Assembly: GCF_027921745.1 (NCBI RefSeq)
Contig: NC_079240.1
Coordinates: 1,922,001 to 1,986,000, forward strand
Direction of reading: 5' to 3'
DNA length: 64,000 bases
Source of the DNA: Schizosaccharomyces osmophilus
Taxonomy: Eukaryota
The notes under the pieces were generated by a model, which was not told where the DNA came from, searched no databases, and worked only from the letters and a program-made list of their open reading frames with translations. The translations under genes were made by a program, and so were the position numbers. The first letter of the stretch is position 1; every line of letters begins with the position of its first letter. Below are positions 57,570-58,440 of this stretch, in pieces.

Positions 57570-58440
57570 ATGAATGAAAAAGAAAGAGAAAGGCATCTAA
57601 AAACTGTCGAACCAGCCGAAGTTGCTTGTTTGAGCTCTTCTACAAGTCCTGACAGCTATTTACCGAAATACAGCGAAATCCCCTATTCTCATGTTGACAA
57701 TATGGAGAAAGGTTGTTTATGTTTACATTACGATCCAGTTCCTCCATACTCAGGAAGCAGACACCAAGAAGCGTCTACCAACATGGCAGGAGGAAATATA
57801 TGCTCTATTTCTTTACGAAAAGTCTTGACGGCATTATTGTGGTTAATTTTCTGGCCGGCAAAAATTGTGAGAATCCCCGAAGCACAACGCAGACAGGAAA
57901 ATGAAACTGCTCGGCTTAGTTTTTGCTTTATTCTTTCGGTCATAGTAAACTTTTGGTTTTCTTACAAATACCTTGTCCCCTTTATAAAGGAATCGATGAA
58001 AGAATCTGTAGGGGTAAACTTTCAAGCTACTGTAGCAGCTGTTCTTGTCGTCATGGCTTTCTACATGTTTCTATATGTTTGTTCATGTAAGTGAAATGGT
58101 GGAATTTTAATTTGATATGTTTACTAATGGGGTACTTATAGTGTTGCTGGATTTTATTGCTTTAGTGCTTTCTGGGATTGCTTGGATTGTTTCTTGGATT
58201 GTTTCTTGGATTATTGCTGCTCTTGGTTTCAGGATGTCGTCGGAAAGAAACGACTCGACGGATGGTAACTGGATCCCACTAAGCACTATGCCGGCAGAGT
58301 CTGAAAATCAATCCAACGATCGTAGTGATAATACTGCCGAACAACCGTCCTCTGAACATACCTCTGAACATACTGAGCAATCTCCAGGGTTACGCCAGGA
58401 ACCGGGTCAGTCTAGGGATGTTGAAAGCGGTGGGAAATGA
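57570..58440 (+). CDS. wtf-associated (wag-like) multi-TM protein, exons 57570-58086 and 58142-58440 (271 aa)
   Basis: A 55-nt intron (GTAAGT..TACTAAT..TAG) joins ORFs 57570 and 58117 in frame. The protein has LPKY and VPPY motifs, ~4 hydrophobic segments and an acidic polar tail. It lies head-to-head with wtf inside the 5S direct repeats. Confidence 0.72.

Follow-up and report, generated by a model that had tools for sequence, protein, structure and literature searches.

Conserved PY motifs suggest a ubiquitin- and vacuole-linked route for Wag, a wtf-associated, predicted membrane protein family without measurable homology to Wtf

The antidotes of the well-studied wtf meiotic drivers bind the ubiquitin ligases Pub1 and Pub3 through PY motifs, are ubiquitinated on lysines of their N-terminal tail, and are sorted to the endosome and vacuole, as set out in the relevant sections of Zheng et al. 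2023 (PMC10721834), and a similar PY- and ubiquitin-based route is described for Sna3 in passages of PMC2171029. The C-terminal repeat of Wtf proteins influences the matching of poison and antidote, according to published excerpts. In three fission yeasts, wtf genes are linked in divergent orientation to a second gene family that was named wag (wtf-associated gene) by De Carvalho et al. 2022 (PMC9562144), who called it uncharacterized; the passages of that paper on wag hold nothing on PY motifs, a DLEKG word, a repeat, or mosaicism, and PMC10721834, the paper on the PY motif, does not use the word "wag" in its main text. Within the literature searched, with most subscription journals and theses outside its range, only two papers were seen to discuss the family, and both term it uncharacterized. 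Two further sources were drawn on (10.64898/2025.12.28.696746 and 10.64898/2026.01.24.701316). The gene and its family were already known; here, we describe the gene model, the conservation of its motifs, its variable repeat, and the mosaic make-up of its paralogs.

We analyzed a wtf/wag cassette in the window, i.e., the whole 64,000-nucleotide stretch of Schizosaccharomyces osmophilus DNA. The order of the cassette is a 5S rRNA gene, wtf on the minus strand, a divergent spacer of 1095 nt from ATG to ATG, wag on the plus strand, and a second 5S rRNA gene. The family, this 5S-wtf<>wag-5S layout, and the exon and intron sizes all agree with the wag descriptions in the relevant parts of PMC9562144. 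The features are as follows, with positions counted from the first letter of the window.

54602..54720, minus strand: 5S rRNA gene that bounds the cassette on the left (Rfam RF00001, 107 bits)
55409..56474, minus strand: wtf gene of five exons and 1066 bp, which splices exactly to the 244-aa protein P0031
56835..56845, plus strand: FLEX-like site GTAAACAAAGG in the divergent spacer, a 9/11 match, with the wtf ATG ~360 nt and the wag ATG ~725 nt away
57570..58086, plus strand: wag exon 1, aa 1-172, with an N-tail predicted to be cytosolic followed by hydrophobic segments 1-3 (spliced model)
57660..57671, plus strand: first PY motif (PY1), LPKY, aa 31-34, canonical L/PPxY; L31, P32, and Y34 invariant in 29/29 aligned Wag proteins
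57696..57713, plus strand: DNMEKG, aa 43-48, family pattern D-x-[LM]-E-K-G; D43, E46, K47, and G48 invariant in 29/29
57738..57749, plus strand: second motif (PY2), VPPY, aa 57-60, non-canonical [AV]PxY; P58 and Y60 invariant in 29/29
57783..57785, plus strand: Met72, the first in-frame ATG past both PY motifs and a weak candidate start of a short form; Met in 27/29
58087..58141, plus strand: wag intron, 55 nt, with GTAAGT donor, CTAAT branch point, and TAG acceptor; the spliced length equals that of P0001
58142..58440, plus strand: wag exon 2, aa 173-271, with the hydrophobic helix of the repeat and the acidic tail (spliced model)
58153..58230, plus strand: amphipathic repeat helix of variable length, aa 177-202, with a 12-bp tandem repeat at 58181-58212 (TRF)
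58231..58437, plus strand: acidic C-tail, aa 203-271, predicted to be disordered (pLDDT < 50), with 14 D/E versus 6 K/R
58769..58887, minus strand: 5S rRNA gene that bounds the cassette on the right (Rfam RF00001, 103.8 bits)

The gene at 57570-58440 comprises two exons and a single intron, with a spliced product of 271 aa, the same length as S. osmophilus SOMG_04924, to which exon 1 is 100% identical, and S. octosporus wag3 has an identical layout (517-nt exon 1 followed by a 55-nt intron). Exon 1 is also 66-79% identical to SOCG_00982, SOCG_03723, SOCG_01438, SOCG_02079, SOCG_01871, SOCG_01136, SOCG_01108, and SOCG_01919, and since De Carvalho et al. 2022 (PMC9562144, Supplementary file 1k) enter all eight of these S. 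octosporus homologues under wag, the gene can be identified as wag. The placement of wag between a divergent wtf and 5S rDNA was found at this locus too, and on homology and position SOMG_04924 is assigned to wag as a gene separate from wtf. The neighboring wtf encodes a single PPPY and lacks the C-terminal (exon-4) repeat; judging from gene length and layout, the pair is likely the wtf5/wag4 row of the published S. osmophilus table. Contigs from three sequencing runs of guessed type covered short parts of paralogous wag exons, in one case with intron sequence, and carry no weight as evidence here.

Around the cassette, the two border 5S copies form a 155-nt direct repeat that is 91% identical. 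Three tRNA genes (52591-52661, 61355-61426, and 61854-61924) lie at most ~3 kb from the two 5S genes, which places the cassette in a Pol III-rich stretch. Past the right 5S gene, an ORF of 79 aa with hydrophobic stretches (59583-59822, plus strand) had weak Pfam matches below the cut-off. Further left, three successive short ORFs on the plus strand (49867-50760) resemble parts of a zinc alcohol dehydrogenase and may represent a pseudogene or a gene split by introns.

A first-pass annotation of this stretch had proposed that the wtf partner itself resembles a Wtf antidote, on the basis of the LPKY, DNMEKG, and VPPY words in its N-terminus. All three words are present at the positions given above; as for the two PY motifs claimed, LPKY fits the L/PPxY consensus, whereas VPPY falls outside it. 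In a single sequence such a motif carries little weight, since [LP]PxY arises by chance in 5.9% of shuffles of this 80-aa tail and LPxY is present in 7% of budding-yeast proteins (PMC1911201, in part). The motif is judged real because it is conserved across the family. We aligned 29 of the 30 matches, excluding one partial sequence, and counted motifs in the 34 proteins with an N-tail out of a family set of 38 (the 30 matches plus eight from the profile search described below). LPxY occurs in 33 of the 34 and in all three species, so that the PY motif is kept across the wag paralogs, and the non-canonical second xPxY occurs in 32. Every one of the 34 carries [LM]EKG (and likewise [DNY][LM]EKG), with the exact DLEKG in 16, and each has three to eight lysines up to PY2. 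E36 is likewise invariant in the 29 aligned proteins, and K47 is a candidate ubiquitin acceptor. Retention of the PY motif across paralogs and three species makes a link to Rsp5/Pub1-type ubiquitination likely and suggests that Wag is probably under selection.

The aligned proteins fall into two N-tail classes of 16 and 13 members, between which identity is 26% before PY1, 64% across the stretch from PY1 to EKG, and 76% at PY2; the membrane core stands at 73%. The motifs thus exceed their flanks, yet are not more conserved than the membrane core, and recent gene conversion among wag paralogs inflates their apparent conservation. The second class, here called P0006-type (13 S. osmophilus copies), starts with KNKY and lacks a CLCL spacer, and its DLEKG stands one residue ahead of a PY-like motif, as in S. 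pombe Wtf. The same type of tail is also seen in the S. cryophilus fragment P0043 (SPOG_03602), whose locus tag is adjacent to that of a wtf protein (SPOG_03603); its presence in two species indicates that this class is probably old.

The membrane body beyond the N-tail was earlier described as about four transmembrane segments followed by an acidic tail. Four hydrophobic segments and the acidic excess of the tail were found, but the first two segments are borderline as membrane spans (median best 19-residue hydropathy of 1.68, 1.60, 2.68, and 2.20 for segments 1-4), leaving two to four true spans. We infer a cytosolic N-tail; the loop at aa 98-115 is the most basic one in Wag, so the tail could face the lumen if segment 1 spans the membrane. 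Past the third segment, the repeat region measures 11-59 aa in 26 of the 29 parsed paralogs, and its helical moment peaks at 97-100 degrees in four of four tested, a period like that of the repeat in the three Wtf proteins tested. AlphaFold models were of low confidence for both families (Wag pLDDT 49 and pTM 0.22; Wtf pTM 0.32). With the low-confidence Wag model, Foldseek gave no match at E up to 0.001, and the matches from VIA-align (Z up to 8.7) were of a generic helical kind; a PDB sequence search with Wag gave two matches, both with E above 1. These structure results are uninformative.

The annotation had also considered Wag a distant relative of Wtf, and here the profile tests gave a negative answer. 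Against 5 and 59 Wtf proteins, hhalign scored the Wag alignment at probabilities of 0.75% and 0.17%, which is the level of the controls; the larger set comprised 59 of the 71 Wtf proteins found in Wag's three species, shorter or irregular models being excluded, and S. pombe Wtf entered the profile tests only via Pfam. Five comparisons of Wag and Wtf segments reached at most 1.2%, with 1-15 of 25 column shuffles reaching as high a score and one reversed control scoring higher, and reversed sequences (6.6 and 5.3 bits) outscored the best cross-HMM matches (5.7 and 4.5 bits). Of the 28 Pfam families with matches in the 29 Wag proteins, the 25 listed include neither WTF nor a Bsd2-type family (the other three have one member each), while Pfam WTF matches 19 of the 59 true Wtf proteins of these species. 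N-tails alone gave no WTF match in Pfam with seven Wag queries, and true wtf exon 1 alone was unmatched as well. The gene structures also differ: wag has two exons, with both PY motifs and three hydrophobic segments in the first, versus the five exons of this wtf and the five or six, including an antidote-specific exon 1, of its family. All of these homology tests have low power, since identity between true Wtf relatives can be as low as 16%, and at this resolution Wag has no measurable homology to Wtf.

Short words are nevertheless common to Wag and S. pombe Wtf tails, namely DLEKG, LPxY[NS], PPYS[DE], and KNKY. Words like DLEKG may be common in the tails of fungal membrane proteins, and a literature search for "DLEKG" and "VPxY" returned nothing relevant. 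The likeness of DNMEKG to a DLEKG motif of Wtf, claimed at first pass, stands for S. pombe, whose tails read DLEKG, one residue, LPE[YH], and then LPPYS (32 occurrences in the published alignment), but not for the species of Wag, where DLEKG is found in 0 of 71 Wtf proteins. In the reading frames of the window, D[LIVM]EKG was found 0 times in 13,909 residues. Such words could be taken to make Wag a remote Wtf homologue, for instance from an ancient inverted duplication, that acts as an antidote-only suppressor by co-assembly. The pattern DLEKG-x-x-P-x-Y, which is in the register of the S. pombe DLEKG-x-LPEY, is present in 13 of 34 Wag proteins and in 0 of 300,000 shuffles (the pattern having been picked post hoc), 14 of the 34 have a KNKY-like start, and the weakness of the homology tests leaves some room for this reading. 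It is nonetheless very improbable, given that every profile test stayed at control level, that the order is reversed, with PY1 before DLEKG in Wag and after it in S. pombe Wtf, that the in-register form is found in a single N-tail class, with a spacer of 6-9 aa in those Wag proteins that diverge most, and that published antidotes need near-identity to their poison. The origin of wtf<>wag by inverted duplication was dropped, as no inverted repeat longer than 28 nt links the two genes within 54500-59000. Shared ancestry of the Wag and Wtf tail alone is somewhat easier to entertain, though still doubtful, and it would not make Wag an antidote.

In its distribution, the family is confined to a few species: a profile search of 1.84 billion representative sequences gave 10 matches, each of which belongs to S. 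osmophilus, S. octosporus, or S. cryophilus, and no Wag match outside Schizosaccharomyces at E up to 0.001. The paralogs are mosaic, with 13 block combinations among 29 proteins, and the trees of N-tail and core for 31 proteins disagree, with clustering largely by species. Published lists give 6 of the 21 S. octosporus wag copies as pseudogenes. According to published tables, 17 of these 21 adjoin a wtf and linkage is tight in two species, the divergent arrangement being maintained in three. For S. cryophilus, the published entries give five wtf genes, two of them wag-linked (wag20 and wag35), a numbering that suggests about 35 wag loci; eight full-length Wag clusters were found there, and most copies appear to stand without an adjoining wtf. 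Passages of the same literature place wag beside tdk killer loci as well.

Mosaicism, repeat variation, and pseudogenes give wag the look of a selfish family, which invites the reading that Wag is a poison-antidote family of its own, of wtf design without detectable homology, whose body would be toxic unless ubiquitinated and whose PY tail would protect. The layout suits this proposal (PY tail, hydrophobic helices, variable amphipathic repeat, and acidic end), as do the restriction to three species, the species-specific clades with discordant N-tail and core trees, the abundance without wtf in S. cryophilus, the proximity to tdk killers, and the fact that the Spk-1 killers of Neurospora are also PY-bearing membrane proteins. 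However, published accounts describe a similar expansion and homogenisation of hsp16 genes at the subtelomeres and 5S repeats of these yeasts, so that copy number and conversion do not require selfishness, and we regard a self-protecting poison as unlikely. In the same proposal the variable repeat would set self-recognition, and a PY-less form, e.g., one starting at Met72, or a change in the ligase would free the poison; against this, neither an intron nor a confident FLEX site lies upstream of Met72, and Met72 (27/29) is no better conserved than the neighboring columns (27, 26, and 26), for which reason it was set aside as evidence for a conserved poison start. That wag is a second ubiquitin-gated family of spore killers, which would have reached the wtf design independently or via a borrowed tail and would be carried by cassettes with 5S borders alongside the wtf and tdk killers, is graded as improbable.

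The promoter gives a mixed picture. The first-pass claim of a divergent promoter shared with wtf and containing FLEX is borne out in its geometry, but the FLEX site is the 9/11 match listed above, one of 10 such sites within 55300-58600, and its 11-mer is absent from the supplementary workbook of PMC9562144 that holds 2917 confident FLEX hits. The 9-mer core of the site is over-represented in the window (8 occurrences versus 1.26 expected), which suggests that it may be a forkhead-type site; a shared promoter driven by Mei4 would be conjecture. Another 9/11 FLEX-like word is situated in wag exon 1 (57716-57726, minus strand), ~60 nt upstream of Met72; it lies in the spacer that proteins of the second N-tail class lack, and the published set of confident sites does not include it.

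Two further proposals, a second antidote and a two-component drive system of wtf and wag, can be set against published drive data. No wag accompanies wtf25, wtf68, or wtf33, the three drivers demonstrated in S. octosporus, and in the accounts available the wag-linked S. octosporus wtf61, S. osmophilus wtf41, and S. cryophilus wtf1 have their poisons partially neutralised by their own antidotes; this cognate rescue was seen in S. cerevisiae, where Wag is absent. Non-matching antidotes of 13-76% identity gave no rescue, and the tethering of non-matching Wtf pairs was insufficient for it, as reported in published excerpts. Neither proposal is supported, given the wag-less drivers, the Wag-free rescue, the failure of non-matching antidotes, and the S. 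cryophilus counts, where wag is numerous and wtf scarce. Among intact S. octosporus wtf genes in the published tables, a confident intron-1 FLEX is present in 1 of 14 wag-linked versus 19 of 34 unlinked genes (p = 0.003) and at least five short reads in 1 of 14 versus 13 of 34, counts in which the 14 are not independent, as 11 of them form one clade. Pooled reads of the short isoform come to 0.6% for wag-linked and 2.7% for unlinked wtf in the same tables, but the per-gene ratio is not significant (p = 0.15). The wag-linked intact genes of S. octosporus look more like antidote producers than like strong drivers.

Bsd2/NDFIP adaptors of ubiquitin ligases combine N-terminal PY motifs with about three membrane helices, an architecture that Wag resembles. 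Wag could thus be an adaptor of this style that binds the neighboring Wtf via its helices or repeat, aids vacuolar clearance, and protects carriers. The divergent linkage retained in three species would agree with such a role, as would the poor rescue, in published budding-yeast data, of the wag-linked S. osmophilus Wtf41 poison by its own antidote. The exon-4 repeat is missing from 11 of 14 wag-linked versus 0 of 34 unlinked intact S. octosporus wtf genes in the published tables, whereas Wag has a repeat, but those 11 genes are most likely the single published clade. The candidate idea that the Wag repeat complements a repeat-less Wtf was rejected, since in S. osmophilus the corresponding counts are 6 of 19 versus 2 of 12 (p = 0.43). 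Forced linkage of non-matching Wtf proteins gave no rescue, wag-linked S. octosporus wtf yield little poison transcript and so leave little to clear, no Bsd2-type family stands among the Pfam families listed above, and most S. cryophilus wag copies appear without a wtf alongside, all of which makes an adaptor role quite improbable.

On balance, we favor, with a modest degree of confidence, the view that Wag belongs to an independent family of PY-tagged membrane proteins that are vacuole-sorted cargo, co-copied with wtf, and not Wtf antidotes. The conserved LPxY likely recruits the Rsp5/NEDD4 ligases Pub1 and Pub3, which would ubiquitinate lysines of the N-tail, and the modified protein would then be sorted from the Golgi to the endosome and on to the vacuole. 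That Wag's own PY motif binds these ligases and drives this route is, by analogy with the described systems, considered quite probable. The association of wag with wtf is probably due to their being copied together, as parts of a single cassette between 5S genes; Wag is probably not a neutraliser of Wtf poison, and we infer that it plays no part in Wtf rescue.

Compared with these systems, Wag likely behaves as a Wtf antidote does in its trafficking (PY motif, ubiquitin, and vacuole). It shares with the antidotes the PY tail with lysines and the hydrophobic helices described in excerpts of Zheng et al. 2023 (PMC10721834) and Nidamangala Srinivasa et al. (10.1101/2024.08.27.609905), and also a variable amphipathic repeat, an acidic end, and membership of a multi-copy mosaic family, but it differs in having no measurable homology, two exons rather than five, and no intron-1 promoter for a PY-less form. 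Like Sna3, as described in parts of PMC2171029, it is a small predicted membrane protein with a PY motif, a nearby lysine, and the same predicted vacuole route; unlike Sna3, Bsd2, and NDFIP, with which it has no sequence match, it is lineage-restricted and multi-copy. Neurospora Spk-1 is, in the passages of PMC10721834 concerned, a membrane protein with a conserved PY motif that is proposed to be ubiquitin-gated, as may hold for Wag; Spk-1 is a described killer, whereas Wag is known from its sequence, with matches in three Schizosaccharomyces species only.

The wag family, with at least 20 copies per genome in three fission yeasts and linkage to well-studied meiotic drivers, is pointed by its conserved PY motif to a concrete pathway. 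If Wag is toxic, it would be a second ubiquitin-gated killer family and would support the published idea that any protein which interacts with itself and is gated by modification can turn into a driver. If Wag rescues, it would be a linked helper of wtf, and if it does neither, it would be an ordinary vacuole-bound protein that was amplified with the cassette.
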